Assembly: GCA_044892525.1 (NCBI GenBank)
Contig: CM097885.1
Location: 29,390,001 to 29,454,000, forward strand
Source: Schmidtea polychroa
Lineage: Eukaryota
Reading direction: 5' to 3'
Length of the DNA stretch: 64,000 bases
Within the stretch, counting starts at the first letter, position 1, and the number at the start of each line of letters is the position of its first letter. This document shows positions 30,641 through 60,825 of the stretch, piece after piece. Made by a program: the position numbers and the translations under genes. The notes below the pieces were generated by a model. It was not told where the DNA came from. It was given only the letters and a program-made list of their open reading frames with translations, and did no database searches.

Positions 30641-30679
30641 ATCAGGTTGTTAGTCACTAGATGTAGGTATCTGGTTGTA

Positions 30680-31975: not shown

Positions 31976-31976
<1 letters not shown>

Positions 31977-32375: not shown

Positions 32376-32621
32376 AATACCCCTAACTGTTTTAATCTTT
32401 AAAGCCTCAAACTCAAAACATAAAGAGAATAGAAAAGAAAATGGTATAATGAAAAAGTTAGAGGGCTATTTTGGTTAGGGATATAAACACACTACTTGAG
32501 ACATTGTTTTGATCGTAATCAAACTCTAGAGTTGATCTTTATCAGATTATTGATTTTAAATTATATAAAACTTAAAAAATTGAAAAAGAATAAAAAATTT
32601 TATGAAATAGTAAAACTGCTC

Positions 32622-32995
32622 TGAGAGGACAGTGGTATTTTTTTTTTTTTTTCACTGTCCTCTCAACAGTTTTTTTGATCCGGATCATTTTTTTATTCAA
32701 CCTCTTTCGTTTATCAAATCTCTTCCAATATACAAGCTGGCCAGACTCATACATCAGAATCAATCCGATAATAGCAGCACACCTTATTATTCGCTTCTCG
32801 CTCGAATACGATTTCATCGGCGTTTTAAGTGTGCTGCTCGAAAGTACAAATGAATTCGAAAGCGAATCCGAAAGAGGTCCAAAAACAACTGAGAAATAAA
32901 TGTACACAGTTAGGAATCGATCCGGGTGTGTTCGAAAGACTGGTGGCGATAATTACCGGTTCGCCACCATCACCCGTTTCAATAATTTTTTTTTC
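32622..32995. ncRNA. Candidate structured RNA or ssDNA element within the TIR (copies at ~45724-46105 and ~55807-56170)
   Basis: Nested perfect helices of 13, 10, 10, 9 and 6 bp in a GC-richer island. Confidence 0.45.
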
Positions 32996-33256
32996 ATATT
33001 TATGTTTAAAAATAAAATAATTAATAAAATAAATAAAATAAATAAAATAAATAAAAAAAATAAAATAAATAAAATAAATAAAATAAATAAAATAAATAAA
33101 ATAAATAAAATAAATAAAATAAATAAAATAAATAAAATAAATAAAATAAATAAAATAAAATAAAATAAAATATAAATAAATAAAATAAAATATAAATCTA
33201 AGATACCCACACCATTTTCAATATTATTTTCAAATTTTTAATATTATTTTATGTTG

Positions 33257-33337
33257 AAAAAAAACTAACCTCAGATGTGATTTGAACCGCTATCTATTTG
33301 CACTACTGTGCCAGTCTAGCCCACTGCGCTATCGGGC
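33257..33337 (-). ncRNA. tRNA-like Pol III unit in the left TIR
   Basis: A box TAGCGCAGTGG, B box GGTTCAAATCA, T8 terminator. Confidence 0.6.
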
Positions 33338-33376
33338 TTTGGATTTTTTGTCATTTTTTAAATTTTTATTATAAAA

Positions 33377-34654
33377 ATGAATAATATAAATCTTAAAATT
33401 CAAGAAAAAAATAAATTAAATCTTGATTATAATAAAGAATTTACTCATGAAATCAAGAAAAATGATATTTTAAAAATCTCGCCAACTTCAGGATCTATAG
33501 CAAACTTAAATCGTAGGGGTGATATAGTTTTTCAATCTCTTCAAACATCAAACCCAATAGATATTTGTAATGCCAAATTATATTATAAAATTGAATTAGA
33601 AATTGAAGCAAACAAAGATATAACCCTAGAAAATAATTTCTTTCCAAATTTATTCTCCAACATGAGATTAAAACTAGGATCATCAGAAATTGAAACTGTT
33701 TTACATCCAGGAGTATATTCTACAATGTTAAATTTTATTTTGACAGGTTGTGATTATAAAAACGAATATTGGATTCCTGATGTTAATAAAGGAGATTTAG
33801 ATAAAGATGGTTTAGATATAAATTATGGTTATTATAAAAGAGCTGAACTTTATAAATCTAAAAAATTTGACGGTTATTTTGAATTAAAACATTTATTTGG
33901 ATTCCTTCAAAATTATAACCGTGTACTTCATAATGTTTCTATAGAATTCATCTGTAATAGACTAGAAGGTGATAAAAGATTGTTCTATGGAGCTGCAGAT
34001 ACAAAAGCTAAATTAAAATTATCAACACTTGAATTGCATATACCTGAATGGACATTAAACCCACATTCTGAAATCAAACTCCTTGAAAGATTAAATTCCA
34101 ACAAATCTATAAATGTAAATTATTTAAATAGAATCTGTAGTGAATTTAGTATGACAGAGGGTTCAACATATTCTATAAAGGTAGCAAATTTAGCATACCA
34201 ACCAAGATATATCTTGATTGGATTCAAAGAAGTAGATTCATCTTTCCAAAAAAATAACAACTTGTTTATTCAAAAGATTGGAGATGATAATTTAAAAACA
34301 ATCCAAATTCAATTAAATAGTTCTTATTATCCAATAAATAGAATGGAATTTAATATTGAAAATAATGAAAACATATTCCCATATCTAAATTATATTGAAA
34401 CATGTTATGATTTCAAAGTTGAACCGCAATTAAGTTTAGAAGATTTCAAAAATTTATATTCTATATTTTGTATAAATGTATCAGATCAAGATGATAGATT
34501 AGCCATAAATAATGTTGATGTTACACTTCATGTAACAAAGGATTCTAATTTCAAAGCTAAAGTATATACATTAATATTAGAAGAAAAGAAAATAGAAATG
34601 AAATTATATGGTGGAAAGATTTCAATTATTGAAAATGTTAGGGGAGATTCTTGA
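33377..34654 (+). CDS. Major capsid protein (double jelly-roll, Polinton type)
   Basis: 425 aa; ITLENNFFPNLFSNMRLKLGSSEIE..PG..STM, PRYILIGF, QIQLNSSYYP and YSIFCINVS motifs; genomic context. Confidence 0.85.
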   Translation: MNNINLKIQEKNKLNLDYNKEFTHEIKKNDILKISPTSGSIANLNRRGDIVFQSLQTSNPIDICNAKLYYKIELEIEANKDITLENNFFPNLFSNMRLKLGSSEIETVLHPGVYSTMLNFILTGCDYKNEYWIPDVNKGDLDKDGLDINYGYYKRAELYKSKKFDGYFELKHLFGFLQNYNRVLHNVSIEFICNRLEGDKRLFYGAADTKAKLKLSTLELHIPEWTLNPHSEIKLLERLNSNKSINVNYLNRICSEFSMTEGSTYSIKVANLAYQPRYILIGFKEVDSSFQKNNNLFIQKIGDDNLKTIQIQLNSSYYPINRMEFNIENNENIFPYLNYIETCYDFKVEPQLSLEDFKNLYSIFCINVSDQDDRLAINNVDVTLHVTKDSNFKAKVYTLILEEKKIEMKLYGGKISIIENVRGDS

Positions 34655-34683
34655 TATAATCCCTGATATTTTAACATTTTAAA

Positions 34684-36075
34684 ATGTCTCTAAATAAACG
34701 GTATTGGAGATGTGAAACTTGTAATTGTCAAGTTACAAAACATCACAAAGCAAATCATTTAAAAACTAAAAAACATACAGGAGGTGATCTACAATCTTCA
34801 AAAACAACATCTTCAATATTAAAACCTTTTACTACAGAAAAATATCCAGGTGAAAGACATTTATTTAAACACAACTATACCGGACCAGGAACACGTCTAG
34901 ATATTAGATTAGATAAAAATAATAATCCTAAACAAGGAGAAGAACCAATAAATAGAATTGATCAAGCAGCTTTAAAACATGACATTGCTTACAATTCAGA
35001 AGATCTTAGAGATAGACATGTTGCAGATGTGAATTTAATACATGATTTAAATAGTATCCAAAATACATCAACCCAAGAAAAGATTCAAAGAGCTCTAGTT
35101 AAATTAGCAATGAAAGGTAAGATTTTCATAGGCTTAGGACACAGTCCGATCACAATGGGTGCAAGACTTCCTAAGAAAGCAAAAGATGTTGCTAATAAAA
35201 AGATTATCGAACAAGCAGAGATTGAAAGATCCCTCGAGAGTACAGCCAAGACTAGTTTACAAACCCCAACAGAATCAGAAATAAAATATGCCAACGAATT
35301 ACACCATGAATTTAGAAAAAATAAAAAATATTTAAAAGTTCAAGTACATGAAAAAGATCAAACATGGTCTGCAGATTTAGTCTTTATGCCAACCAAATCA
35401 TCAGACCCTGAAAAATATAAAATAATTTTAACTGTAATAGATTTATATACAAGATTTGCTTTTGCAAGGTGTTTAGAAAATAAAACAGGATATTCTATTA
35501 CAGAAGCATTTGAAAATATATTTGAAGAATATCAAAGAATTCCAAAATATTTATGGTGTGATAAAGGAACAGAATTTTATAACAAAGTTTTTACAAAGTT
35601 TTTAAATGAAAATGATATTAAATTATATTCAACAGAAAACGAAGGAAAAGCAGTTGTGGTTGAAAGATTAAATAGAACATTAAAAAATAAAATGTGGAAA
35701 TATTTTACTGCTATTGGAAAACAAAAATGGAACAATGAATTGTTACAAATGATTGTAAATGAATATAATAATGATGTACATAGTTCTATAAAATCAACAC
35801 CCTTAAATGCTTCCTTGAATCCTGAAACCATTAAAGTGGTAAATATTGAAAATGATGTTATTGAAAAACCAAAGTTTAAAATTGGTGACTGAGTAAGAAT
35901 ATTTAAATATAAAAATAAATTTGAAAAAGGATTCACAGCAAAATGGACAAATGAAATTTTTATTATAAATAAAATACATTATACAACTCCAATAACATAT
36001 AGCATCATTGATTTAAATAATGAAAAAATATTAGGTAGATTTTATAATAATGAGTTACAAAAAACAGATTTCTAA
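34684..36075 (+). pseudogene. int: Zinc finger - parvovirus-type phospholipase A2 - retroviral-like (rve) integrase fusion with a premature stop at 35890-35892
   Basis: CETC..HLKTKKH; NYTGPG and DQAALKHDIAY; DDE motifs WSADL, CDKGTEF, VERLNRTLK. The frame continues KFKIGD*VRI..FEKGFTAKWTNEIF..GRFYNNELQKTDF to TAA at 36073-36075. Confidence 0.92.
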
Positions 36076-36638
36076 AACAAACTTTTCCATATTTCAGCTT
36101 CTTCTCTATCCAAATAAATATAATTATATTTTTCTCTCCAATGATTATCAACAAACATATCAAACATATTCTTATCAGGTTCAACATTTGAAAATAAGTC
36201 ATTATAAATCATATTCTTATCACGGCGATCTAATTTAAAAAATATAAAACAATTAGAATTATTTCTTATAGAGTTTTTATCTAAAGCATAATAAGTTTGA
36301 GATATATAAATAACATTACAATTATTATGTCGACCTCGTGTAAAGTAACTCTTTTGAATCTCTTGATTTTTCATGTTAACAACATCATTAAATATAACTA
36401 GATTCTTTTTATCTTTAGGAAGTAAATCACAATGTAAAACATCTTCAGGTTTATTAGAGAATAAAACTTGAATCCATTCATTTTCACAAATATAATCATC
36501 TTCAAGCAACATCCTCAAAAGAAGTACATTCTTTCCACATCCAGAAGAACCAACAATTAATAATCTAAAATTATCAGGAAATACTTTATTATTAAATTTA
36601 CTCTTATGTCTATTTAAAATTGGTTTCCAAATATCCAT
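36072..36638 (-). CDS. A32/FtsK-like DNA packaging ATPase (possibly degenerate)
   Basis: Walker A GSSGCGKN, Walker B LVIFND, RGRH..IYISQ; likely start AAAATG at 36638. Confidence 0.88.
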   Translation of the reverse strand: MDIWKPILNRHKSKFNNKVFPDNFRLLIVGSSGCGKNVLLLRMLLEDDYICENEWIQVLFSNKPEDVLHCDLLPKDKKNLVIFNDVVNMKNQEIQKSYFTRGRHNNCNVIYISQTYYALDKNSIRNNSNCFIFFKLDRRDKNMIYNDLFSNVEPDKNMFDMFVDNHWREKYNYIYLDREEAEIWKSLF

Positions 36639-36653
36639 TTTATTTATTATAAA

Positions 36654-37202
36654 ATGACAACGGAAGAATCTTTGCAAGAATTAATAAATTCAAATAAAAA
36701 TAAATCAGTAGTAATTGATGGTAAAAAATATTTTATTGGAAAACATGTAAAAGAACAAGTTAAAGAACGTATTAGAGAAGGTGGCATTCTTCCATTAGCT
36801 GCTTTAATACCTGCAATCATTGCTGCTTTATCAGGTGCTGCTGGAATAGCTGGAGGAATTGCAACTACAGTTCAAAAAGCTAAAGAATCTCAAAAGACAG
36901 ACCTTGAAAAAGAAAAACTACAAACTGAAATCGAGAAAATGAAGGTAGGGCAAGCTAAAGGAAAAGGTCTCTATCTTAATCCATATCAGGGCAAAGGTCT
37001 CTATCTTGATCCATATAAAGGCAGAGGTTTAAATGACTTTTTAAAAAATCAAATTTCAACATCTGAATCTTTATCATCAAAAGATAAAGATGATTTTAAA
37101 AAAATATGTAAATCTTTAAAGAATGGGTGTATTTGTAAAATTGGAGGAACTCCACAGAATAGTGGTAAAGGATTGTATTTAAAACCTTGGAAGGAACAAT
37201 GA
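36654..37202 (+). CDS. Virion core or membrane-active protein resembling the adenovirus pX C-terminus
   Basis: GGILPLAALIPAIIAALSGAAGIAGGIA hydrophobic segment; three GKGLYL repeats. Confidence 0.65.
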   Translation: MTTEESLQELINSNKNKSVVIDGKKYFIGKHVKEQVKERIREGGILPLAALIPAIIAALSGAAGIAGGIATTVQKAKESQKTDLEKEKLQTEIEKMKVGQAKGKGLYLNPYQGKGLYLDPYKGRGLNDFLKNQISTSESLSSKDKDDFKKICKSLKNGCICKIGGTPQNSGKGLYLKPWKEQ

Positions 37203-37224
37203 TACCATTTTTAATACCATTAAA

Positions 37225-38063
37225 ATGGTATATGAAGAAAGATTAGCACTTTTAAAAAAATTACAATCAGAACAAAACAAGTATAATAAAAAAGATACAA
37301 CTCAACAAACTGAATCTATAATATTAAATGAGGTAATCCAACAACAACAAGGACCAACAATTAAAGCTATAGAGAGACTTAAAACTATAGAAGCTCCTCT
37401 AACCCCCGAACATAAAGCTATAGAAGCCCCTAAAAAGGAATTACTAAGATTAGTAGGAAAAAACGTAGAAATAATATTGATTTAGAAGAAGATGAATTTC
37501 TTTCAAGATTAACACCTCATAAGACTCCAATTAATTTTAAAATTAATACATCACTAGCTCCATCAATTATACCTACTATAGGTTATGATCCTAGAGGTTT
37601 TCAAACAATAACAATTAATAATCAAAAATTTTATATATATTTAAATTCAGAAAATAATCCATCGATTATTTCAACAAATACTTTTATGAATAGAGAGCGT
37701 GTTGACATTGAACTTTCAGATGATTTTCATGGATTAATTTCTGGATATATTCCAGATGGTGTCAAGAATGAAGAAATTGATAAATATTTAAACTTAATAA
37801 AATTAATAAATGGTAGCCCTAAAGCAAAACATATTAAAGATTTAAAGAAATATAAAGATAGAGATAAAACAGGCCCTCAAATTCAAATCATTGAAGGAGA
37901 AGGCCTCAACCCTATAAATCTTTTTATTGAATTAAGAAAACTATTAGCAGCTAAAAAAGCAGGACATAATAATTTAGATTCTGATATTTTAAAGATTTCT
38001 AAAGATTTGTTAAAACAAGGAATAATTTCAAAAGATAAATTTAATAAGTATACGAAGTTATAA
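37225..38063 (+). pseudogene. Polinton hypothetical protein split by a frameshift
   Basis: The second frame is open from ~37434 (ITKISRKKRRNNIDLEEDEF...) through to the ORF at 37686-38063, which ends GEGL..LLAAKKAGHNN. Confidence 0.65.
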
Positions 38064-38085
38064 ATACGAAGTTATAAAATACAAA

Positions 38086-39279
38086 ATGGCTTCAATATTA
38101 GATGTTTTAATAACATTTGGAATAAATGCAAAAACAAATTTTGATTTAAAAGATTATGCAGATTATTTAAATTTAAAAATTAAAATATTAATGAATGATG
38201 AATTGTCGAGTCTGAAAGAAGACACTCCAAAGAATATCATTATAAATTATCAAAATTCAAATGAAAAAGGATCTCATTGGGTTTGTATATATAATAAATC
38301 TATCTACTTTGATTCTTTTGGGATTAAACCTACTAAAGAAGTTGAAGACTATCTGTCGAAGGACTATACTTTTAATTCTTTACAAGTTCAACCTAATAAT
38401 ACTAAAATATGTGGTATTATAAGCTTATATGTTTTGTATAGATTGAATAAATCCAAAGGAGAAGGTTTCACTTCCTTAATCCAAGAAATTTATAATGATT
38501 TAAAATCTCTACTAAAAGAAATGGAAGATAATTTTAAAAAAATGGTAAACATAATGTCAGATAAATATTCAGGAACTTTATCTATAAATTCAAAAGAATC
38601 AGACTTTACTATAAACTTTCAAGATTCAATAAAATTAGATCAAAATTTAAATTATGAATTAGGTCTATTATGGTTTTGTGCTTATAATACTATTTTTAAT
38701 ATAACTAAAGATAATAACACATTTAGTTATGTAAGCCCCCCAAAATTCGAGGATAACATTATAATAATAATAGAACCCGGGGCTTATGAGATAAAAGATT
38801 TAAATAATATACTTTCTAAAAAAACAAATGGAGCTATTGAAATTAAAATAGATTTACCAACTTCAAAATGTATAATGACTTTAAAGAATATAGGAATTAG
38901 GTTTCAAAATAATAGTTTCTTTAGAACAATTTTAGGATTTACACAGAGTCATTATAACATACCTAAAGTTGAGAAAGAATCTATTATAACATCAGAACAT
39001 ATTATAAAAATAATAAATACAAACACAATAAATATTCATTGCGATTGTATAACAGGTTCTTATAATAATGGTAAACAAACAAATGTTTTATATTCCTTTC
39101 CCTCAAACACAGTTCCTATGGGATATAAAATAGTTGAAAGAATGAATCCTCCAAATTATTTGCCTTTATGTAGAAAATATATAATGGATATTAATTTTAA
39201 AATTCTTAATCAAGAAGGAGAATTGATTGATTTTAATGGAGAAGAGATTTCAATGTATTTACATTTGAAACAGGTTTGA
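38086..39279 (+). CDS. Adenain-like cysteine protease fused in frame to the minor capsid protein (penton)
   Basis: GSHWV, YFDSFG and Q..ICG catalytic motifs; the C-terminal part has INIHCDCITGSYNNG..LYSF..GYKIVE and LIDFNGEEIS; the two are separate ORFs in copy 2. Confidence 0.88.
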   Translation: MASILDVLITFGINAKTNFDLKDYADYLNLKIKILMNDELSSLKEDTPKNIIINYQNSNEKGSHWVCIYNKSIYFDSFGIKPTKEVEDYLSKDYTFNSLQVQPNNTKICGIISLYVLYRLNKSKGEGFTSLIQEIYNDLKSLLKEMEDNFKKMVNIMSDKYSGTLSINSKESDFTINFQDSIKLDQNLNYELGLLWFCAYNTIFNITKDNNTFSYVSPPKFEDNIIIIIEPGAYEIKDLNNILSKKTNGAIEIKIDLPTSKCIMTLKNIGIRFQNNSFFRTILGFTQSHYNIPKVEKESIITSEHIIKIINTNTINIHCDCITGSYNNGKQTNVLYSFPSNTVPMGYKIVERMNPPNYLPLCRKYIMDINFKILNQEGELIDFNGEEISMYLHLKQV

Positions 39280-39303
39280 AGATTCATTTTAAATTATTAA
39301 TAA

Positions 39304-40314
39304 ATGAGTTCTTATATTCCATGTAATAGAGGTGGTGGAACAATAAAAACAGGGTTTAATACAGAAGAAATATTAACTTTAACAGAAAATAAATATATTA
39401 ATGAAAGAGGTGATTCAATGAAGGGTGATTTAATTTTAAATGGACACAAGATAAAAGAATTATCTTTTCCAACTGATGAAGCTGATGCAGTTAATAAGAA
39501 ATATGTAGATGGTGTTAAAAAATTTACTGATTTAACAACAACAAGAATTGAAAGTTCATTAACAACAAAAATTGATTCAATGGAATCAAAGCTTAATAAT
39601 ATCGAACAACGATTCAATGATAAATTTGACAAGTTACAAAGTCTGTTAACTGAGCAAGTTGTAAGGTTAAATACTAGCATATTAAATTCTAAAGATAAAC
39701 AAATTATGAATACTAAATTTAATACAATATATAATATAATAAATGAGATGATTACATCATTTAATAAAAGAATTTCAAATTTAGAGTCTCATGGAACACA
39801 CATTAACACCACACATAGTATTAGAAAAAGAGCTGCTGAATTAGAACAGAATAAAACATTATTACCCCATACATATAAACATTTTAAAGAACCAAGTTTA
39901 ATAACAACAAACAGTAAAGAATGGAGTGTTTTTATGGTTGTAAAGATTATTGATCCTTATTTCTTTTTGTTTGATGATGATAATGAAAGAATGAAATGGT
40001 TTGTGAAATGTGATTATAATAGTAAGCTTAAAAAGGGTGATGTTATAATGACTAGTTATGATTTACCACACGGAGATTGGTATGTTAATACTCATTCACA
40101 TGGACTACATAAAGTTAAAAGTAAGAATATTATTTTTAAAAGCACACTTGTACAATATATAGATTTAATATTTTATGAAAAAAAGGTTGATGTTGATGAA
40201 GTTCGTAAAGCATTGAGAGAATTGTATAAAGATATCCTCTCAACAAGAGTTTCTTTTGATATCCGAGTATTGGTACCAGATGGTGCTCAGAAGAATAAAG
40301 TCTTATTTTTTTAA
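39304..40314 (+). CDS. Fibre-like protein with coiled coil
   Basis: MKGDLILNGHKIKEL..PT...DAVNKKYVD neck/fibre motif, heptad region and globular C-terminus. Confidence 0.55.
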   Translation: MSSYIPCNRGGGTIKTGFNTEEILTLTENKYINERGDSMKGDLILNGHKIKELSFPTDEADAVNKKYVDGVKKFTDLTTTRIESSLTTKIDSMESKLNNIEQRFNDKFDKLQSLLTEQVVRLNTSILNSKDKQIMNTKFNTIYNIINEMITSFNKRISNLESHGTHINTTHSIRKRAAELEQNKTLLPHTYKHFKEPSLITTNSKEWSVFMVVKIIDPYFFLFDDDNERMKWFVKCDYNSKLKKGDVIMTSYDLPHGDWYVNTHSHGLHKVKSKNIIFKSTLVQYIDLIFYEKKVDVDEVRKALRELYKDILSTRVSFDIRVLVPDGAQKNKVLFF

Positions 40315-40322
40315 TTATTAAA

Positions 40323-40898
40323 ATGGAAGAAGTAAGAGAAGAAAAAATTTACCCAGAATTGAGATCATCTGGATATTATTCTTCCAAGGCCTCGGCTCCC
40401 ACAGAACTTGAAATTATGAGAGTAAAAGAATTTAAATCAGAAACCTTACATTTACAAGATTTATTAAAGCATTATAAAAAAATTAAAAATAGATGGAATA
40501 AAGGGAATACAGTTTTAAAAGTTATAGGTTATTCTTTAGGATTTGCATCTGCAATATTAACAGTTATTTTACCTATAACTTTACCAGTTGTTACTCTTGC
40601 ACCTGTAATACTTGGAAGTATTTCAGTAGCTGATGGTTTCCTAACTGAAATAGTTTCACTATCTTATACTTCTAAAAAGAAAAGTTTATATCGTGAAGTT
40701 TGTTTATCAATAGAATTAGGAATCTCTAAATTATTTTTATTTCAATTAAAAGGTTTAGAAGATGGAATCTTAACTGATGATGAAATAATGAAATCAAATC
40801 AAATAATACAAGATATTAAAAATGAGGTTATAAGATTAAAAAGTGCTAATGTTATAAGTAATGAATATTCTAAAAAAATTAAAGAAAAAAATGGTTAA
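40323..40898 (+). CDS. Membrane protein with a hydrophobic hairpin and YPxL/SAP motifs
   Basis: IYPEL..ASAP; VIGYSLGFASAILTVILPITLPVVTLAPVILGSISV. Confidence 0.7.
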   Translation: MEEVREEKIYPELRSSGYYSSKASAPTELEIMRVKEFKSETLHLQDLLKHYKKIKNRWNKGNTVLKVIGYSLGFASAILTVILPITLPVVTLAPVILGSISVADGFLTEIVSLSYTSKKKSLYREVCLSIELGISKLFLFQLKGLEDGILTDDEIMKSNQIIQDIKNEVIRLKSANVISNEYSKKIKEKNG

Positions 40899-41009
40899 AG
40901 AATTCTTACTTATAAAATGGATGAATTTTTAAAAAAGTAGATCAAGTTGCTATAGTTGCTTATATTAATTGTCGAGGTTTTATTATTAAAAAATTAAATA
41001 TCGTTGGTT

Positions 41010-44000
41010 TCAGTTATGGTTGAAAGCCAACCTATGAATCATTAATTTATGATCTTTAAATTCTTTATCACTTAGACCTTTTATATATTCAGGATCAGTA
41101 TTAAAATATTTAAGTTCTAAACATATAGGATTAAAAACTTGAGAATATAAAGGCTTCTCGATTTCTCTCTCGGGATAAATAATTTCAACATTATAAATAT
41201 CAAGATCGGTAATATTTGTATCATATAACTTATTCAACTTTTCTAGATTTTTTATTATAGGGATTAAATTATTTCCAATAGGTAGAGTTGTCTTTAAGTC
41301 ACTTAGGATGAATCTTTTATCATCATAATTTGATAATGATACTTTTTGAGATTCTATCAAGTGAATATCATGGTTTTCACTTTTAAGTTGATGTATTTCA
41401 TCAATTTTATCTTTATGATTTGGATTCAATGTATCTATATAATCTTGATGAGAAAGATTCTTTGCAACTGATTTCTGTATTCCTTTACATCTTTTATCCT
41501 TTACAGGTTTTTCTTCTTGTCCCTCTGGTCCTTTAGGAAATATAGGATATCTATGTGTAATGGTTTCTTCTGTTTCTGGGGTTTTAAATATAAATGATCT
41601 AGTTATAAATTCAGGGTTTCTAAATGTTTCGTATGAATATTGTTTAGCACGAATAAATATTCCATTTTCTATAATAGTAAAAGGTTTTTCATCTTTAAAC
41701 GAAAATAATTCTCCAGATGAATTTATTAAATTTGAAAGTATAGGATTTTCGGCTATATCTCTTTGTAAATCATGAGTTCTTATTGTTAAAAACATTGAAT
41801 CTGTACCCATTGCATGCATTGATATATTAGAACCATATATAGGTTGTAAGATGTTATAATATGTTTCATACATTTGTAATTTTGAAAGTTCTAAAATTGA
41901 AAACCCTATAAATATTGGTTTGTTGTATGTTTTCTCAAAATTCTTTAGTTCTATTGCAGTAAGACTTTCAGAAAATACTTGTGCGTTTTTAAATGTAGGC
42001 TTTCCTAGCATATGATTATAACGCTTAATGTCTTTGGTAGTATTTGTTAGGAGTTCAATATGAGTATATTTATCAACATTCTCCATTGTCTTCCCAAAGA
42101 CTGAATTGTTTAAAAGTTTATAATTATTATCTTTAAAAAGGTTACCTTCTCTTTTTGCAATGTTTCGACATCTAATGTTCTCCTCGATAAAAGCTTTCAT
42201 GAATGGCCTCTGTTTAAATCTTATGACACTATGAACTGTTTTTAATATCATACCTCGTGAAAGATAAAATTGGAGGAGTCTATAGTGACAAAGATAATAA
42301 GTTCGATCTGTTTGATCACAAAGAAGTTTCATTGTTGGAGGTTTATCTTGTGAGATTTGCCATTCAGAAAGTTCGTTGATATCAATCTTTCTTCTTACAG
42401 GAGCTAAAGGAAAATATCTTGTTCCTGATTTTATATCATCTGGATATAATAAGTCACATTCTACAAAGTAACCTATTGGAGAATCTTTAGGTGTTGAAAG
42501 TATTTCTTTTACAAGAGTCTTTAATGATTCTTCATTAGAGGGATATATTTCAATGAAATCACCCATTGGTAAATATTGAGTCATAATTCCTGAATATAAA
42601 GCTGTTGCATCTATATAAAGTATAAATATAGGATTTTTCATTGTTTCTAATAATTCCTTTAATTCCTCATTGTTAATTTTCATATATGGATCAGAAGTCT
42701 TTGAAAGCATTCTGCTAGTAGTTATTGCATTTCTAGCTTTTATTTCTCTATTCCCCATTACTGAAGAGACTCCTTCTCTAATGTTTGTTTTAATTAGATT
42801 AAACATATCGAGGTTAGTTAAAAGATCTATAATTTTATCAGATTCTTCTATATTTGAAGTCCAAATGGTATATAATAAAGTATCCCAAGCTAAAGAGGGT
42901 GCTGTTATGTAATTGTAAGGTTTAAGAACAAAAGACTTTGTAAATTCTTCAAAGCAATCTGCTAGAATATAAACATCCAAGGATAAATACATGTTGGTAT
43001 ATTCTCCTAAAGTTTTACACTTGAATAATTCCCACATTTTATTTGCTCGAGAATATTCTTGATCTGTAATATGATATTTTTGAAGTTGTGAATAGAAATC
43101 TTTTTGGCTAGGAAGAATTGTTTCATTATATCTTTCAAATGAATCAACATAGTCATAAGGATATATTCCTTTTGCTAAGCATGTAGAATATTTTTCTAGA
43201 GGAATATTATTTTTTTCCAAGAATTCTCGAGTGATTTTAAAATTTTCTGGTTTCATTGTTTTTGCTACTGCATCTAGAGACATTTGGAGAAAGTTTAACG
43301 AGTCTATAAATTTTAATTTTCCATATTTAACTGATTTATATTTTTCCTTTGTAAGTCCTATAACTTTGAAAGAGCTTTTAGCATTTTCTGCTAATTGTTT
43401 AATAAATAGATGTATGTCATAACCAAAAAGATTATGAAATATAACAGGTACAAATTTAGGAGTATGACAATTAAGATTGCAATTTTTATGAGCTGCTCCT
43501 CGATAATTATTTTCCTTTTTTAAATGATCATGATCGGGGACTTTTATATTTTTCGAAGATTGTTGTCTTTCATGAAAGATTCTTTGTTCTTCTTCTTCAA
43601 TAGTTTCATTATTTGGAGGTTCCTCAAAGAGTTGATTCTCAAATGGTTGTTTACACATCCAACAATTTGAAGAATTTTCATAGTCTTCCCATTGTTCGGT
43701 TGAAAAATTTATTTCATATTTTGTTTTTAATACTTTAAATATATCGTGTTCTAGATCATTTATACTTTTGGTAAAATGATTTAAAACATCTTCTGAAATT
43801 CCATGAAATGTATATTCTCTAGATTCTATGAGTTCAGGATAATTGCTTTTAAATAATAATTTATAAGCAGATGGTAATTGTTTAGTTTTTTTAACACTAT
43901 TAGGTTTGTTTCTTTTTCTTAGAAAGGCTTTCATCCTCTCTGGTTTCATCTTCTCTCCTGAGGAGTTCCATGAATCCATGAGTTTATTTTTTTCTATTAT

Positions 44001-45410
44001 ATTTAAATATTGATTAACCAAATCTTGTTTACGATTTATAGATTCAAAGTCTCCATAAATCACTCCTACTGTTTGTAGTAAATTTGAAAAGTTTTTAAAA
44101 TGCATCTTGGGATCTTTAGGCATGTTAATTAAAGCTGGTTCATCTTTTTCACAAAATCTTGTATGTTTAATCATAGAGTTTTTAGTTGTTGAATAATGAA
44201 GACATCTTTTACTTGTTCCTCCTCCACTAGTTGGATTCTCTGGTGATGTAAAAGCTTGAAAGTTTTTTATTAAAACATAATGTTGATTATTTTGTTGTTC
44301 CAAGATTAAAAGATATATTTCTCTAGGGTTATCGGTTCCACTATCAGAAATGTAAATTGGAATAATTTCTCTGCTATTAACATGTTTCCCTTTAACACGT
44401 TCATAAATATTAATTTTAAGATTATTTAAACTTTCAAATTCTGGAATGTCTTCTAGTTTCATTGGATGTTTGAATCCTTTGGGAAATATTAATTCATTTT
44501 CATATTGTTTGTATTTTGAAACTCTTTGAGGGTTTGATTCTTGAGGATGTAAATGTGCAAGTATTGACCAGATGAAACATTTGTTATCATTATTCTGTAT
44601 GTTTATAACATTTTTATATGTAAAGGGTGTAGGAATATAAGATTTAGGATTGGGTGGTAATCCTCTCCAATAATCAATCACTAAAGTTTGGAAAGAGTTG
44701 AATACTAAGTTTGAATCTCCTAATTCATTTTCAACCTCTTCTTGTTTTGCTTCTACTGCTTAAATTATTTTTTTGATGGTTTTATCAAATCCTTTAGTTG
44801 AAAATAAATATTTAAAGGGTATTCCAATTTCAACATCTAAAGGTGTTGTCTTTTCTTCTGCTCCTCGCCAGTATTTTGCTTTGATTATAATTTTATATTT
44901 TATAACATTATACCTTGTCGGTTTATAATTTTTTAAAGCTTCAGTGAAAGAATTTTTAATATATTTTTTATTTTTATTTATATATTCTCCAGGAGTTATA
45001 GGTCCATTGATTTCTAATTGAAATTCATCTACATGATTAAAATCATCCCAGTTATATTTTTCTCTTTCAACATGATCAGGTTCTCCTTCTGAATGACATT
45101 CCTCATCGTCAGAATTTTGTTTTTTATTTTTACATTCTTTTATATGTTCTAAATAATAGAAATTTAGTTTTGTTGAAAAGTTACAATGAGGACATGTAAA
45201 TATTTCTCTATTTTTCCCGATACAATTTTCAAAATGTTTATTATATCCAGAATGTAGAAATCTTCCTTTACATTTAGGACAAACTTTTGAATTTGTATCA
45301 TTAAGATTGTTTTCTTTTAATAAATGAGCTTTCGATTTTAAGTGAGAAATCAATCCAGTTTTATTTTTAAAAACTTTATTACAAATATTACAATTCATTT
45401 TTAGAAACAA
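41010..45410 (-). pseudogene. polB: Protein-primed family B DNA polymerase with N-terminal zinc fingers and an endonuclease VII-like insert; one nonsense codon
   Basis: YGDFES, FHNLFGYD, YIDATALY, KLLNNSVFGK; DHDH..YRGAAHKNCN; TAA at 44760-44762 where copy 2 has CAA; motif C reads MGTDS. Confidence 0.95.
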
Positions 45411-45477
45411 ATTTTTTATAGGATACCTTGTTTTGATTTTTTATGATGTTTTTATATTTATTTTCATAATGTGACAG

Positions 45478-46506
45478 TAATAAAAATTTAAAAAATGACA
45501 AAAATCTAAAACCAGATAGCGCAGTGGGCTAGACTGGCACAGTGGTTCAAATGGATAGTGTTTCAAATCCTAACTGTGGTTAGTTTTTTTTCAACATAAA
45601 ATAATATTAAAAATTTGAAAATAATATTGAAAATAGTGTGGGTATCTTATATTTATATTTTATTTTATTTATTTTATTTATTTTATTTATTTTATTAATT
45701 TTATTAATTTTTAAACATAAATATGAAAAAAAAATTATTGAAACGGGTGATGGTGGCGAACCGGTAATTATCGCCACCAGTCTTTCGAACACACCCGGAT
45801 CGATTCTATAATGTGCACATTTATTTCTCAGTTGTTTTCGGACCTCTTTCGGATTCGCTTTCGAATTCATTTGTACTTTCGAGCAGCACACTTAAAACTC
45901 CGATGAAATCGTATTCGAGCGAGAAGCGAATAATAAGGTGTGCTGCTATTATCGGATTGATTCTGATGTATGAGTCTGGCCAGCTTGTATATTGGAAGAG
46001 ATTTGATAAACGAAAGAGGTTGAATAAAAAAATGATCCGGATCAAAAAAACTGTTGAGAGGACAGTGAAAAAAAAAAAAAAAAAAAATACCACTGTCCTC
46101 TCAGAGCAGTTTTACTATTTCATAAAATTTTTTATTCTTTTTCAATTTTTTAAGTTTTATATAATTTAAAATCAATAATCTGATAAAGATCAACTCTAGA
46201 GTTTGATTACGATCAAAACAATGCCTCAAGTAGTGTGTTTATATCCCTAACCAAAATAGCCCTCTAACTTTTTCATTATACCATTTTCTTTTCTATTCTC
46301 TTTATGTTTTTAGTTTGAAGCTTTTGAGTTTGAGGCTTTAAAGATTAAAACAGTTAGGGGTATTAAGGGTAGTTGTTTTCAAAAATATAGGGTTAAAATA
46401 CTATAAAAGTATATGTTTTAGGTTGTTTTTCTAATGGTTTAGGCGTAATGGAGGTATGTTTTGTTGGGAGGGCTGTTTTGGTTAGGGATATAAACACACT
46501 ACTACT
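45478..46506 (-). repeat. Right TIR of Polinton 1
   Basis: Reverse complement of the left TIR. Confidence 0.95.
45511..45591 (+). ncRNA. tRNA-like Pol III unit in the right TIR
   Basis: TAGCGCAGTGG...GGTTCAAATGG..GTTTCAAATCC...T8. Confidence 0.55.
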
Positions 46507-47542
46507 AATAATAATAATAATAATTATAATAATAATTATAATAATAATAATAAAAATATGAAATAAGGATTTCTTGACAATGGTATAAATTAAATGTTTC
46601 ACAAGTAAATAGTAAGATAAGCCTTTATTTATTAAAATTAATAAGATTACTCAGAATTTAGTTGTTTCAATATTGAAGTACTTAATGGCATTCTGCTTTA
46701 TATTCCTTTTCTGCATTTTAATTCATCTAAATTTGACTAAATAAAAAACTTTAAATTACTGAAAATTTTTAAAAATCTTTTAAAAAAATAATAACTCTTT
46801 AAAGATAATTTAAACTTAATTTACGCAACCACAACATTAAATTTTTATTATTATTTTCAACATTTATGTAATTTTAATTTTTATTCCTTATAGCTCTTAA
46901 ACATTTTTATTAACTTAAATTAATTTAATTATAATGTATTATTTAAATTTTAAAAAATATTTTAAAGGATTTTGTAAAGCTCGGAAATTTTACACCAAAA
47001 TTAACAAAAGATCAGACTGTAAATTTCATTAATTTCTTAAGCATTAATTTTTGGATTATTTATTATATAAATTGCCTCTTTAAATAGGAGATTTTATTTT
47101 GTGACGAAAAATTGAAATCAAATGTAAAAAGTAAGAAATTATTTTCATTTGTTATTCTTCAGAAAACCTCTGTTATTTAGGTTTCATTCTTTGTCCTTAA
47201 GTTTGCTTACCGTGTAATATAGAGCCTTTCAATTTTCCTGCTTGATTATGGGCGGTTTGTAGTGTTAGGTTCGTATGGTTAGGATCGACTTACACAATAC
47301 AAATTTGACCTTTATCTAAAACAAATACCTCACTTCAAAATGTGTTTTAAAATAAATGGTATTTAGTGACAGCTAAATAAATAAGGTAATAATATGCTTT
47401 ATAATAATTTCTTATACAGATGATAGTTGCAGAATACGTTATACAAAATTTGTGTTGCTGGCTTCATTATAAAGAAAGAGATTGTTTGTTCAAAGCTTCC
47501 TAAGAAATGAATCTATTATTAACAGTTAACAAAACCTCAGCG

Positions 47543-47778
47543 TTAAGGGTCAAAATATAGATAGGATATATTTCACAATATTTATGCGATCATATTAACC
47601 CAAGAAATATTGTGTTGTAAAATAATCATAATAATACATACCGATTTATTATGATATAATTATATATCATAATAAATCGGTATGTATTATTATGATTATT
47701 TTACAACACAATATTTCTTGGGTTAATATGATCGCATAAATATTGTGAAATATATCCTATCTATATTTTGACCCTTAA
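47543..47778. mobile_element. Perfect fold-back MITE flanked by TTAA (Kolobok-like ends)
   Basis: TTAA-GGGTC...GACCC-TTAA; ~116 bp arms around a 4 nt loop. Confidence 0.7.
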
Positions 47779-49793: not shown

Positions 49794-50041
49794 CAGCCAT
49801 GGCCAACCGTGGCCCGCGAAGCGTTTTGATGTGGCCCGGACACAATTTTAAACATCAAATCAATAATTGTCCTTTATATAATTCATATTCGAATTAAGCA
49901 TGTTTTTAATTTAAAAAATTGATTCTAAGTTTACTTGAATCGTAAAAACGAGTTATATTTATTTAAATGAACTTATTGTGGCCCGTGATAGTATTTTTCC
50001 GAAAATTTGGCCCTTCGATTGATTTGGATTGGCCACTACTG
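49794..50041. mobile_element. hAT (Charlie-like) MITE
   Basis: CAGCCATGGCCAA..TTGGCCACTACTG; GGCCC subterminal motifs; TSD CTTTAATT/CCTTAATT. Confidence 0.8.
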
Positions 50042-50520
50042 CCTTAATTGAATCTTTTATTTCAAAAAACTAATTATTTAAATCCTATAATAACTTAAAT
50101 TTCCAAATATTATATTTTATTTGTGATTGTTGATTACCACGATAATTATTTATTTCAAACTGAAATTATTTTTTTCTTAACTAAAGTAATCAATATTAAT
50201 ATTAAATAATCAATATTATTAGGAAAATAAACTAACAAAATATTTGTAAAAATAATCAATTTAATATTATAAAAATTATAAAAGTAAAAAGATATTATTA
50301 AGAATTAAGTAAATTTAGTAAATATGAAGATGTATATAATTAAATGAATAAAGAATACAAATTAATTAATATAAATTTTTAAAACGATTTTCAGATTCCA
50401 CAAAACGATCAATTTAGGAAACTAGATATTCAATAATAGATTATAGATGAACTTGATATATTTACAATTTGATGTTTGCCAAATTAATTTAAATAAATTT
50501 AAGAGGTAATTCTTAGTCGT

Positions 50521-54549: not shown

Positions 54550-55416
54550 CAGGCCCTAAGAGAGGCGGGACCTGAGGGGCCACTGGCCTCGGCCCCAAAT
54601 CTTCAAAATTTTATTTGAAGAAATTTTTTTTGAAACCAAAATTAATTTTTAAAAATTCAACAATTTGAAAATGGACTAATGATATAACTTCTTTGCTCTT
54701 ATATATCAATTTAACATGTTTTTAAATAAATTAGATTGATCTAAGATTAGGAATACGTCATTTAAAATTGCTTGATCATTATTAAAATCCACGAATAAGA
54801 GATTTTTAAAAATATTTTTAAAAATATACGTTTATTAATGATATGATATTGGGGCCCCTAATTTAAATCCAACTAGCGTGGAATTCGAAAGAATATTTTA
54901 AATTTCATTAAAATTTCTCTACTAAAAAAATGAAATGAAACGGCTTGAAATATTTCGAAAATTTCTCATTGAAGTTTTAAATTTAAAATTGTCAGTGTTA
55001 AACTGAATTAAAGTTTGTTTATGGTGTTTGTGTTTCTATTTGATAAAAATTAATTTCAATAAATTTTAATACTAAAAGAAAGGTATGAAAATTTTTTTTG
55101 GATATAAATATATCCCTTAATTTAATGAATATTTAATTTAGATAAAAAGACACAAAAGTGGAGCAGAAAAACGAAAGGACATTAAGAAGCGAAAAGAAGC
55201 TATCTATAAATCAGCGAAAATCACCTCATTTTTGAAGAGAGCAAGCCAAAACAATAAAGAAGATTCTTTTGAATCATTAATCGCATCAGTCAATGGCGAT
55301 TCATTTGATACATTCGTTCAAGAACATGAAGATTTAACAGTAACAGAAGAAAAAAATTGAATACGTCGAGTGATTTAGATAATGATCATTATTTAGTTTC
55401 AAAAGTCGTTTTTGAT
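54550..55416 (+). mobile_element. 5' part of a hAT-like transposon interrupted by Polinton 2
   Basis: CAGGCCC..GGGGCC..GGCCCC end and GGGGCCCC subterminal motif; KRHKSGAEKRK...KITSFL peptide at ~55145-55240, typical of hAT/ZMYM-type transposase N-termini. Confidence 0.6.
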
Positions 55417-56321
55417 AGTAGTGAGGAATCTATGCACCCCAGCACCCCCACCCTCAAAAAAAAACAGCGCTATTGACCCATATTTTCCACATTTATATGC
55501 TTTTTTACCCCATATTCTTCACTTTTTTTAACTTTTAAACTTTGTCCCCTATTGCCATTAACCCTTAATTTCTTCCCTTAAAAGTAAAAAAGTTCGGAAT
55601 AGATGTATTTATAGATTAGTAATTCCGAGAAAAGGTAACGGGGTGCATAGATTCCTCACTACTTGGTCTTAAGGATTTAATGTTATAAGGATTTAATGTT
55701 ATAAGAATATCAGATTACCTAATTCATAATGATCTAGGTCGCCTGATCACCTTAAGGTTTTGAAAGTTTTAAAAATAAAAAATTTTATGAAATAGTAAAA
55801 CTGCTCTGAGAGGACAGTGGTTTTTTTTTTTTTTTTCACTGTCCCCTCAACAGTTTTTTTGATCCGGATCATTTCAACCTCTTTCGTTTATCGAATCTCT
55901 TCGAATATACAAGCTGGCCAGACTCATACATCAGAATCAATCCGATAATAGCAGCACACCTTATTATTCGCTTCTCGCTCGAATACGATTTCATCGGGGT
56001 TTTAAGCGTGCTGCTCGAAAGTACAAATGAATTCGAAAGTGAATCCGAAAGAGGTCCGAAAACAACTGAGAAATAAATGTGCACATTAAAGAATCGATCC
56101 GGGGGTGTTCGAAAGACTGGTGGCGATAATTACCGGTTCGCCACCATCACCCGTTTCAATATTTTTTTTTCATATTTATGTTAAAAATAAAATAATTAAT
56201 AAAATAAATAAAATAAATAAAATAAATAAAATAAATAAAATAAAATAAAATAAAATAAAATAAAAATAAATAAAATAAAATATAAATCTAAGATACCCAC
56301 ACTATTATTTTCAAATTTTTT

Positions 56322-56409
56322 AAAAAAAAAAAAACTAACCACAGTTAGGATTTGAACCGCTACCCATTTGAACCACGGTGCCGGTCTAGCCCACTGCGCT
56401 ATCTAGGTT
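56322..56409 (-). ncRNA. tRNA-like Pol III unit in the TIR of Polinton 2
   Basis: TAGCGCAGTGG A box, consensus B box GGTTCAAATCC, T13 terminator. Confidence 0.62.
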
Positions 56410-56507
56410 TGGATTTTTGTTATTTTTTATACTGTCACATTATGAAAATAAATATAAAAACATAAAAAATCAAAACAGGATATCCAATAAAAAATTTTTT
56501 TCTAAAA

Positions 56508-59500
56508 ATGAATTTTAATATTTGTAATAAAGTTTTTAAAAATAAAACTGGATTAATTTCTCACTTAAAATCGAAAGCTCATTTATTAAAAGAAAACAAT
56601 CTTAATGATACAAATTCAAAAGTTTGTCCTAAATGTAAAGGAAGATTTCTACATTCTGGATATAATAAACATTTTGAAAATTGTATCGGGAAAAATAGAG
56701 AAATATTTACATGTTCTCACTGTAACTTTTCAACAAAAGTAAATTTCTATTATTTAGAACATATAAAAGAATGTAAAAATAAAAAACAAAATTCTGACGA
56801 TGAGGAATGTCATTCAGAAGGAGAACCTGATCATGTTGAAAGAGAAAAATATAACTGGGATGATTTTAATCATGTAGATGAATTTCAATTAGAAATCAAT
56901 GGACCTATAACTCCTGGAGAATATATAAATAAAAATAAAAAAAATATTAAAAATTCTTTCACTGAAGCTTTAAAAAATTATAAACCGACAAGGTATAATG
57001 TTATAAAATATAAAATTATAATCAAAGCAAAATACTGGCGAGGAGCAGAAGAAAAGACAACACCTTTAGATGTTGAAATTGGAATACCCTTTAAATATTT
57101 ATTTTCAACTAAAGGATTTGATAAAACCATCAAAGAAATAATTCAAGCAGTAGAAGCAAAACAAGAAGAGGTTGAAAATGAATTAGGAGATTCAAACTTA
57201 GTATTCAACTCTTTCCAAACTTTAGTGATTGATTATTGGAGAGGATTACCACCTAATCCTAAATCTTATATTCCTACACCCTTTAAATCTAAAAATGTTA
57301 TAAACATACAGAATAATGATAACAAATGTTTCGTCTGGTCAATACTTGCACATTTACACCCTCAAGAATCAAACCCTCAAAGAGTTTCAAAATACAAACA
57401 ATATGAAAATGAATTAATATTTCCCAAAGGATTCAAACATCCAATGAAACTAGAAGACATTCCAAAATTTGAAAGTTTAAATAATCTTAAAATTAATATT
57501 TATGAACGTGTTAAAGGGAAACATGTTAATAGCAGAGAAATTATTCCAATTTATATTTCAGATTATGAAGTTAGAGATAATGAACCCCAGGATAACACTA
57601 GGGAGATATATCTTTTAATCTTGGAACAACAAAATAATCAACATTATGTTTTAATAAAAAACTTTCAAGCTTTTACATCACCAGAGAATCCAACTAGTGG
57701 AGGAGGAACAAGTAAAAGATGTCTTCATTATTCAACAACTAAAAACTCTATGATAAAACATACAAGATTTTGTGAAAAAGATGATCCAGCTTTAATTAAA
57801 ATGCCTAATAATCCCAAGATGTATTTTAAAAACTTTTCAAATTTACTACAAACAGTAGGAGTGATTTATGGAGACTTTGAATCTATAAATCGTAAACAAG
57901 ATTTGGTTAATCAATATTTAAAAATAATAGAAAAACATAAACTCATGGATTCCTGGAACTCCTCAGGAGAGAAGATGAAACCAGAGAGGATGAAAGCCTT
58001 TCTAAGAAAAAGGAATAAACCTAATAGTGTTTAAAAAACTAAACAATTACCATCTGCTTATAAATTATTATTTAAAAGTAATTATCCTGAACTCATAGAA
58101 TCTAGAGAATATACATTTCGAGGAATTTCAGAAACAGAAGTCTTGAATCATTTTACTAAAAGTATAAATGATCTAGAACATGAAATATTTAAAGTATTAA
58201 AAACAAACTATCCTCAAAATATTTCTAATCAACAACAACAAGAATATGAAAACACTTCCAACTGTTGGATGTGTAAACAACCATTTGAAGAGTCTCCGAA
58301 TATAAAAGTCCTCGATCATGATCATTTAAAAAAGGAAAATAATTATCGAGGAGCAGCTCATAAAAATTGTAATCTTAATTGTCATACTCCTAAATTTGTA
58401 CCTGTTATATTTCATAATCTTTTTGGTTATGACATACATCTATTTATTAAACATTTAGCAGCAAATGCTAAAAACTCTTTCAAAGTTATAGGACTTACAA
58501 AAGAAAAATATAAATTAGTTGAATATGGAAAATTAAAATTTATAGACTCGTTAAACTTTCTTCAAATGTCTCTAGATGGAATAGCTAAAACAATGAAACC
58601 AGAAGATTTTAAAATCACTCGAGAATTCTTGGAAAAAAATAATATTCCTCTAGAAGAATATCCTACATGTTTAGCAAAAGGAATATATCCTTATGACTAT
58701 GTTGACTCGTTTGAAAGATATAATGAAACAATTCTTCCTAGCCAAGAAGATTTCTATTCACAACTTCAAAAAAAATCATATTACAAATCAAGAATATTCT
58801 CGAGCAAATAAAATGTGGGAATTATTCAAGTGTAAAACTTTAGGAGAATATACAAGTATGTATTTATCCTTGGATGTTTATATTCTAGCAGATTGCTTTG
58901 AAGAATTTACAAAATCTTTTGTTCTTAAACCTTACAATTATATAACAGCACCCTCTTTAGCTTGGGATACTTTATTATATACCATTTGGACTTCAAATAT
59001 AGAAGAATCTGATAAAATTATAGATCTTTTAACTAACCTCGATATGTTTAATCTAATTAAAACAAACATTAGAGAAGGAGTCTCTTCAGTAATGGGGAAT
59101 AGAGAAATAAAAGCTAGAAATGCAATAACTACTAGCAGAATGCTTTCAAAGACCTCTGATCCATATATAAAAATTAACAATGAGGAATTAAAAGAAATAT
59201 TAGAAACAATGAAAAATCCTATATTTATACTTTATATAGATGCAACAGCTTTATATTCAGGAATTATGACTCAATATTTACCAATGGGTGATTTCATTGA
59301 AATAGAATCATCAAAAGAACTTATAAAAGAAATACTTTCAACACCTAAAGATTCTCCAATAGGTTACTTTGTAGAATGTGACTTATTATATCCAGATGAT
59401 ATAAAATCAGGAACAAGATATTTCCCTTTAGCTCCTGTAAGAAGAAAGATTGATATCAACGAACTTTCTGAATGGCAAATCTCACAAGATAAACCTCCAA

Positions 59501-60825
59501 CAATGAAACTTCTTTGTGATCAAACAGATCGAACTTATTATCTTTGTCACTATAGACTCCTCCAATTTTATCTTTCACGAGGAATGATATTAAAAAAAGT
59601 TCATAGTGTCATAAGATTTAAACAAGCTCCATTCATGAAAGCTTTTATCGAGGAGAACATTAGGTGCCGAAACATTGCAAAAAGAGAAGGTAATCTTTTT
59701 AAAGATAATAATTATAAACTTTTAAACAATTCAGTCTTTGGGAAAACAATGGAGAATGTTGATAAATATACTCATATTGAACTCCTAACAAATACTACCA
59801 AAGATATTAAGCGTTATAATCGCATGCTAGGAAAGCCTACATTTAAAAACGCACAAGTATTTTCTGAAAATCTTACTTCAGTAGAATTAAAAAATTATGA
59901 GAAAACATATAACAAACCAATATTTATAGGGTTTACAATTTTAGAACTTTCAAAATTACAAATGTATGAAACATATTATAACATCTTACAACCTATATAC
60001 GGAGCAAATATATCAATGCATGCAATGGATACAGATTCAATGTTTTTAACAATAAGAACTCATGATTTACAAAAAGATATGAAAGAAAATCCTATACTTT
60101 CAAATTTAATAAATTCATCTGGAGAACTATTTTCGTTTAAAGATGAAAAACCTTTTACTCCTATAGAAAATGGAATATTTATTCGTGCTAAACAATATTC
60201 ATACGAAACATTTAGAAACCCTGAATTTATAACTAGATCATTTATATTTAAAACCCCAGAAACAGAAGAAACCATTACACATAGATATCCTATATTTCCT
60301 AAAGGACCAGAGGGACAAGAAGAAAAACCTGTAAAGGATAAAAGATGTAAAGGAATACAGAAATCAGTTGCAAAGAATCTTTCTCATCAAGATTATATAG
60401 ATACATTGAATCCAAATCATAAAGATAAAATTGATGAAATACATCAACTTAAAAGTGAAAACCATGATATTCACTTGATAGAATCTCAAAAAGTATCATT
60501 ATCAAATTATGATGATAAGAGATTCATACTAAGTGATTTAAAGACAACTCTACCTATTGGAAATAATTTAATCCCTATAATAAAAAATCTAGAAAAGTTG
60601 AATAAGTTATATGATACAAAGATTACTGATCTTGATATTTATAATGTTGAAATTATTTATCCCGAGAGAGAAATCGAGAAACCTTTATATTCTCAAGTTT
60701 TTAATCCTATATGTTTAGAACTTAAATATTTTAATACTGATCCTGAATATATAAAAGGTCTAAGTGATAAAGAATTTAAAGATCATAAATTAATGATTCA
60801 TAGGTTGGCTTTCAACCATAACTGA
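56508..60825 (+). pseudogene. polB: Protein-primed PolB of copy 2, with one nonsense codon and one frameshift
   Basis: AAA>TAA at 58032-58034; +1 nt in the A-run at ~58769-58776; intact DTDS motif. Confidence 0.95.

Follow-up and report, generated by a model that had tools for sequence, protein, structure and literature searches.

An inverted copy of the terminus inside the ends of animal Polintons: a recurring fold-back that may re-create a terminal duplex

What does it mean when the terminus of a Polinton recurs, inverted, ~250 bp inside its own TIR? The question is raised by a 64,000-nucleotide stretch of the Schmidtea polychroa genome (GCA_044892525.1, contig CM097885.1, positions 29,390,001 to 29,454,000; henceforth the window, in whose coordinates positions are given), an AT-rich stretch that holds two Polinton copies. 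Copy 1 is a complete Polinton (31976–46506) with the TSD AATAAT, the left one (31970–31975) lying inside an (AAT)n tract and the right one at 46507–46512. It encodes a double jelly-roll (DJR) major capsid protein (33377–34654, + strand; Pfam PF21738, E 1e-26), a PLA2-like domain fused to an rve integrase (34684–35892, +; PF08398 and PF00665), an A32-type packaging ATPase ORF (36072–36638, −; PF04665) and a protein-primed-type PolB (pPolB; 41010–44462, −; PF03175, E 1e-14). Copy 2 lies in the opposite orientation, starts at 55417 and runs past the window edge. Its body is 93% identical to that of copy 1, its left flank offers a candidate 6-bp TSD (55411–55416) whose partner end lies outside the window, and the counterpart of the pPolB is split over several ORFs (56508–60825, with the PF03175 match at 58693–60825). 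Together the copies show the Polinton/Maverick set of pPolB, rve integrase (in copy 1 only), capsid and packaging ATPase; the TIRs with an (AGT)2 end motif and a 6-bp TSD are seen in copy 1. An adenain-like maturation protease gave no Pfam match among the 16 window ORFs scanned.

At copy 2 the fold-back is exact. The terminal 24 bp (55417–55440, +), which begin with the (AGT)2 end motif, recur inverted at 55640–55663 (−), as the sequence-only reading of this DNA had stated: all 24 positions match, and the score was reached by none of 500 dinucleotide shuffles. Copy 1 has the recurrence of ~36 bp that the same reading reported, with 35 of 36 positions identical at each end (0 of 500 shuffles per end). 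On the left, the (AGT)3 terminus and outer arm occupy 31976–32014 (+) and the inner arm 32461–32496 (−), where 28 perfect pairs are followed by a mismatch that is G·T on the 3′-end strand; on the right, the terminus and outer arm occupy 46468–46506 (−) and the inner arm 46229–46264 (+), not 46265 as first given. The match begins at the second AGT (31979 and 46503) because the termini read (AGT)3 if the TSD is AATAAT.

Folded as single strands, the copy 2 and copy 1 units give z scores of −5.9 and −7.9, and the 3′ end of copy 2 is predicted to be paired up to its last base. The loops folded alone are at chance level: z is −0.7 for the 199-bp loop of copy 2 (55441–55639, +), where 26 of 100 shuffles fold as well, and +0.5 for the other. 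In both copies the inner arms are located ~250 bp inside the TIR. This was taken at first to be the length of the unit throughout; it holds for copy 2, but the left unit of copy 1 measures 518–521 bp, because an independent 254-bp MITE (32122–32375; 30-bp TIRs, 4-bp duplication AATA) sits inside its loop, and the unit of a third element, element A, measures 161 bp.

Element A (1757–15657) is palindromic, carries no genes and has Polinton-type ends with the TSD AATAAT. Its terminus (1757–1800, +) contains two 16-bp subterminal repeats, and an inverted variant of the repeat, a 21-mer, sits where it was first noticed, at 1897–1917 (−) and 2111–2131, with mirrored copies near 15232–15252 and 15445–15465. 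The 21-mer matches the subterminal tandem repeat at only 14 of 16 positions (2 of 500 and 1 of 500 shuffles reach the score), both of its copies fall within one internal duplication with an offset of 214 bp, and predicted folds leave the terminal 12 nt unpaired. Element A is a weak case and not a third equal example of a fold-back end. A second large gene-less palindrome, element B (20395–30690), shares internal blocks of ~70% identity with element A; its ends are tandem repeats, and no Polinton end motif was found there. Elsewhere in the window are a near-perfect 236-bp palindrome with 116-bp arms that begins TTAA (47543–47778) and, read by eye, a hAT-like MITE with an 8-bp duplication containing one mismatch (49795–50043).

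The terminal sequences had also been described as unrelated. For copies 1 and 2 this does not hold. Inside 55774 and 46136, respectively, their inner TIRs (55774–56473, +, in copy 2) align with 396 identities, 9 mismatches and 14 gap columns; the likeness then breaks off at a sharp boundary ~355–367 bp from the terminus, at ~55774 in copy 2. Outside this boundary the outer ~360 bp show a weak global collinearity matched by 0–1 of 500 local shuffles. Taken by part, the copy 2-specific spacer of the end module (55664–55773, +) is matched by 2–8 of 500 local shuffles and the loop by 41–107 of 500, and locally the outer ends of the two copies and of element A align no better than chance. Copies 1 and 2 belong to one family, and the sharp difference between their outer ~360 bp probably arose through an end swap: on the alignments, the outer ends would be two old versions of one end module, exchanged at the ~355–367-bp boundary. 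Just inside this boundary lies a hairpin with a poly-T loop (55803–55855; also 32618–32669 and 46054–46107), which is possibly tied to the exchange point. Further inside the TIR, at 56330–56405 (−) and 33245–33325, there is a tRNA-like stretch that points outward, with a run of T and words resembling the A-box and B-box consensus; it is a candidate for a small Pol III transcript, in which ARAGORN found no tRNA and Rfam nothing above gathering score.

Contigs of four public runs (X1, X2, X12 and X13) were mapped onto 55250–56160. In X12 and X13 the end of copy 2 has deep coverage, the only variants listed from 55405 to 55770 being homopolymer indels, and one X13 contig has ~400 different bases of flank that join exactly at 55417. 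Summed depth in these two runs, which does not equal copy number, shows no step at 55663, and its values in the outer half of the unit are ~1.5–1.8 times those close to the inner arm. A dissimilar loose end at 55774 in X2 suggests that there is another type of end. In X1 and X2 (study P1) no contig lies over 55467–55652 and the inner TIR is deeply covered; the gap is given no weight as evidence, since contigs show presence and not absence.

Relatives were sought with capsid and polymerase profiles, which gave 39 metagenome, 31 viral and 49 GTDB-bin loci, most of them ending before they reach a terminus; fetched bin stretches were added. Seven distant Polinton-type elements have fold-backs of 114–174 bp that begin at the terminal base. 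In L016, whose capsid is 31% identical and which has only 15 nt of flank, a 150-bp fold-back is accompanied by a second, degenerate inner copy, as in element A. The 129-bp fold-back of L087 stands 150 bp before a pPolB ORF, and outside it lie 5.6 kb without an ORF of 100 codons. G006 supplies four: C67 has a 159-bp fold-back at both ends, the ACACAC motif and a pPolB; C9 holds a 15.1-kb element with a 174-bp fold-back at both (AGTAGT) ends, a 6-bp TSD, a pPolB and an rve integrase; a second end on the same contig, with the motif ACACAC and a 114-bp fold-back, was assigned by similarity of its short interior; and C50 has a 118-bp fold-back with an ATPase inside and no polymerase in the fetched stretches. 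The seventh, G010:C243, has a 142-bp fold-back that adjoins a polymerase gene in pieces. A pPolB accompanies fold-back ends in the window, L087, C67, C9 and G010:C243. The seven elements fall into two end-motif classes, with pPolBs only 24–36% identical to the window's. A quick pPolB tree (19 rows, long branches), used solely as an indication of scatter, places the four hairpin-bearing elements apart from each other, one beside a terminus without a hairpin.

A control checked 2151 AGTAGT/ACACAC sites for an inverted counterpart no more than 700 bp away that agrees at 18 or more of 19 bases. Eighteen sites have one; the fold-back ends described account for 16 and L176 for two. In the latter, a 32-kb viral contig, an (AAT)n tract leads straight into an 82-bp AGTAGT fold-back (3016–3097) with 19 perfect pairs; L176 was set aside as a Polinton example because a pPolB match is missing from its record. 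Also set aside were L244, L245 and L247, where long host palindromes extend past the end motif. A scan for the pattern (AAT)n-AGTAG gave 91 stretches, and none of the 80 that were fetched, L176 among them, has a Polinton gene match nearby. Capsid and second-class polymerase scans of viral contigs gave no matches, and in G007, which has 180 polymerase matches, no element ends were located in the stretches fetched.

The layout is not universal. The inverted copy appears to be absent at three probable termini (L050, L051 and L053) and also at two doubtful ones (L105 and L077); seven in 10–12 is nevertheless not a frequency, since the positives were found by scan and the negatives by eye, and four positives come from one bin. 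Given L050, L051 and L053, the fold-back is not essential to Polintons. Taken together, the sequence comparisons indicate that it is a real, recurring end design of animal pPolB Polintons.

Several observations on the relatives stand apart from this argument. Many GTDB bacterial and archaeal bins (L073–L121) include Polinton-bearing, apparently eukaryotic contigs, presumably mis-binned eukaryote DNA. The two different fold-back ends of G006:C9 (L241:169–464) lie head to head, 8 bp apart, probably because one element inserted beside the other. A Polinton-like region in G007:C493 (L129/L130) has multi-kilobase inverted duplications that include the polymerase. Copy 1 (31970–31975), element A (1751–1756), G006:C67 (L139:3790–3804) and L050 (1–71) all adjoin (AAT)n or (ATT)n tracts, which hints at microsatellite targeting; no such tract adjoins copy 2, L087 or C9.

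The anatomy of the stems carries information about the form of DNA in which they pair. Perfect stems are 19–28 bp long, except in C50, with an early mismatch and 11 bp. Over the first columns of ten units (at most 45), all six transition mismatches become G·T pairs on the strand that has its 3′ end at the terminus, a count that is small and not independent, the four ACACAC ends being related and two of the G·T coming from element A; the same columns also contain three transversions and six outer-arm gap columns (five in element A). A single-base bulge at position 20–22 lies on the inner arm in six of six cases (L016, L087, C67, C50, the ACACAC end of C9, and G010:C243). Copy 1 and the AGTAGT end of C9 are alike in having 28 perfect pairs and then a G·T at position 29, and TG comes directly after the inner arm in both window ends and in the AGTAGT end of C9. 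Within the first 29 positions of the outer arm the three G006 ACACAC ends differ from one another at five, and at each of these the inner arm has changed as well.

Tips, too, are strand-specific: GAA triloops occur on the 3′-end strand in L016 (twice) and in the ACACAC end of C9, and GA/GA internal loops on that strand in L016, C67, C50 and the ACACAC end of C9. Motifs of the GAA-triloop and GA type are very stable in single-stranded DNA. The window's own loops have none of these tip motifs; what connects its units with the perfect hairpins is their position, the length of the stem and some minor common details. Because of the G·T strand bias, the inner-arm bulges and the GAA/G·A tips, the fold-back probably forms in single-stranded DNA, and the strand-specific features favour the strand that would template initiation, that is, the one with the 3′ terminus.

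The reading that we prefer, and hold with moderate confidence, is that of a local panhandle re-creating the terminal duplex origin for protein priming, much as the sequence-only reading had proposed for its mini-panhandle. The outer 114–275 bp of the TIR would constitute an end module that folds back once the DNA is single-stranded. On the strand with the 3′ terminus, which serves as priming template, the last 19–28 nt would pair with the internal inverted copy, rebuilding a short duplex identical to the normal end without a 15-kb end-to-end panhandle; the element's protein-primed polymerase and terminal protein could then initiate there, with (AGT)n or (AC)n serving as the slide-back repeat. 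Many relatives would have the entire unit as a long hairpin with a stabilised tip, and the window family would have kept the terminal stem and lost the loop structure. This reading is the best supported: the layout is present in seven distant elements, the stems are compensated and the 3′ strand has features of its own. All seven outside elements and both window end types have a stem that starts with the terminal base (in copy 1, with the second AGT), and hairpin ends occur together with pPolB and slide-back repeats. We infer from these patterns that the unit folds in vivo, that the pPolB uses it and that the outer ~360 bp have been exchanged between subfamilies. Several points weigh against it: the element's own TIRs could already form a panhandle without a local fold-back, arm-to-arm copying can account for matching arms as well as selection, and a paired 3′ end could equally self-prime.

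The last possibility leads to the rival that survives best. In parvovirus-like self-priming the paired 3′-OH would prime synthesis through the whole element, and a nick would afterwards resolve the closed end. In its favour are that pairing of the 3′ end extends, in predicted folds, as far as the last base in copy 2 and relatives, that long hairpins with asymmetric bulges resemble parvovirus termini and that an endonuclease VII domain, found in 24 of 34 aligned pPolBs, could cut branched DNA. As a hairpin-specific resolvase this domain was nevertheless rejected: it is common, it has no match in the C9 polymerase, and it is not tied to hairpin ends. Pfam did not detect it in the window's own pPolB. 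In the complete elements – three of three, few as they are – both ends have the same orientation with no flip/flop, and no strand-change joint is found among the 15 of 19 joints that were listed. Copy 1 would moreover keep a 3-nt unpaired 3′ tail, and pPolB and slide-back repeats have been retained. Self-priming, the model proposed for the palindromes of protist virophages and PLVs in bioRxiv 10.64898/2026.07.28.741278, is unlikely here.

A second rival sees in the fold-back a substrate for the rve integrase, which would act on a duplex end rebuilt on single-stranded DNA, either excising the element from a replication fork or holding its end for integration. The Kapitonov–Jurka excision model, as summarised in the Fig. 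4 legend of the same preprint, needs just such a duplex end on a single strand; the base of the stem is the exact junction of element and host, and two unlike end sequences on near-identical bodies fit recognition by shape. We consider the proposal quite unlikely, however, because the strand bias favours one strand only and elements without a fold-back still integrate. Protection or repair of ends is very doubtful: a hairpin that shields the free 3′ end, templates the restoration of lost terminal bases and keeps the arms identical would agree with perfect identity being limited to the last 19–28 bp and with the asymmetry that persists at position 20–29, but it leaves 70-bp stems and conserved tips unexplained, and PMC5449611, which describes fold-back repair of 3′ ends in Streptomyces, notes that none has been reported for adenovirus-like replicons. 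Protein priming on a local panhandle, self-priming, integrase action and end repair are mutually compatible.

It is highly improbable, finally, that a captured MITE-like mini-element or a neutral template-switch product became the terminus and was copied to the other end by the TIR mechanism: the unit does resemble a 250-bp MITE, the outer ~360 bp do switch abruptly between copies 1 and 2 and depth in X12 and X13 is higher in the outer half, but seven unit readings revealed no TSD, the depth changes inside the loop, the end-type boundary lies 110 bp beyond the inner arm, and neutral events would not be expected to put a bulge at the same position and on the same arm in different hosts. The fold-back unit is probably not an inserted MITE, no unit having its own TSD, and no solo units were found elsewhere in the 64-kb window; the suggestion that the inner copy is a second integrase site spawning MITE-sized derivatives is not borne out, no unit having a TSD and depth showing no step at 55663.

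For the exit of Polintons from the chromosome and for their copying there is so far only a proposed model. A fixed 19-bp stem with a one-sided bulge and a clear strand preference makes a small substrate on which protein priming, self-priming and integrase excision predict different results. The findings also suggest that a conserved structural signal goes unnoticed when TIRs are annotated, and that elements can have their end modules replaced and keep nearly identical genes.

With known Polintons/Mavericks (adintovirus-like) the elements share pPolB, rve integrase, DJR capsid, A32 ATPase, TIRs, (AGT)2 or (AC)3A motifs and a 6-bp TSD. Accounts of the group describe end motifs and TIR lengths (PMC8097293, PMC8502044), and their available portions contain neither an internal inverted copy of the terminus nor an exchange of the outer TIR. 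Our literature search returned no account of such a copy in animal pPolB Polintons from the accessible parts of these two sources and of 10.1101/2023.08.22.554363, PMC11296320, PMC8363768, PMC12747079, PMC6431247, PMC11886824, PMC5449611 and PMC4513846; Kapitonov and Jurka 2006, Pritham 2007 and Repbase could mention it.

One direct precedent emerged from the search. The preprint bioRxiv 10.64898/2026.07.28.741278 reports ~52-nt terminal palindromes in endogenous virophages and one PLV subtype of the protist Halocafeteria seosinensis, mostly without pPolB; it searched palindromes with a gap limit of 10 and called for a global survey. Alike are the self-complementary TIR tip next to the TSD and the part in replication that is proposed there for the hairpin. 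The present units are larger (114–275 bp), occur with pPolB and slide-back repeats, and combine a 19–28-bp stem and an inner-arm bulge with loops of up to 200 nt. The window units, with loops of ~200 nt, exceed a gap of 10 nt, C67 and C50 come close with their small tips, and the replicase found with fold-back ends in the window, L087, C67, C9 and G010:C243 is a pPolB.

Parvovirus terminal hairpins are imperfect fold-backs of 100–200 nt whose bulges are asymmetric and whose loops are compact; at some parvovirus ends a single orientation is kept. These hairpins are mentioned in PMC4513846. Unlike a parvovirus, the present element is double-stranded and mobilised by an integrase, shows no flip/flop, and has no HUH/Rep gene among the window ORFs scanned. 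Another parallel is with the 3′ single-strand telomeres of Streptomyces, which, according to PMC5449611 and PMC4513846, form GNA loops closed by G:A and a terminal-to-internal ‘rabbit ear’ duplex and are protein-primed: there, too, a 3′ terminus can pair with an internal copy, and protein-primed synthesis takes place on a folded single strand. The likeness is one of analogy only, the Streptomyces system being bacterial, with 13-bp pairing, patching by Tap/Tpg after internal initiation and no B-family polymerase; its rabbit-ear duplex, according to PMC5449611, proved not to be what telomere repair makes use of.

The panhandle of adenovirus and PRD1 ITRs, in which a duplex origin is re-formed on the displaced strand for protein priming, is described in PMC11886824 as the standard but unproven model for re-initiation. 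That panhandle pairs two genome ends, whereas the fold-back in the window pairs within one end. The core origin of adenovirus and PRD1 is ~18 bp, about the length of the perfect stem. More tentatively, we suggest as a possibility that a large share of animal Polintons exist for a time as single strands, each end forming its own hairpin telomere – a 19-bp origin duplex with an inner-arm bulge and sheared G·A caps – which would be read by shape rather than by sequence, so that whole end modules could be swapped between subfamilies. Such an end would be a convergent hybrid, combining protein priming as in adenovirus with fold-back ends like those of parvoviruses or Streptomyces.
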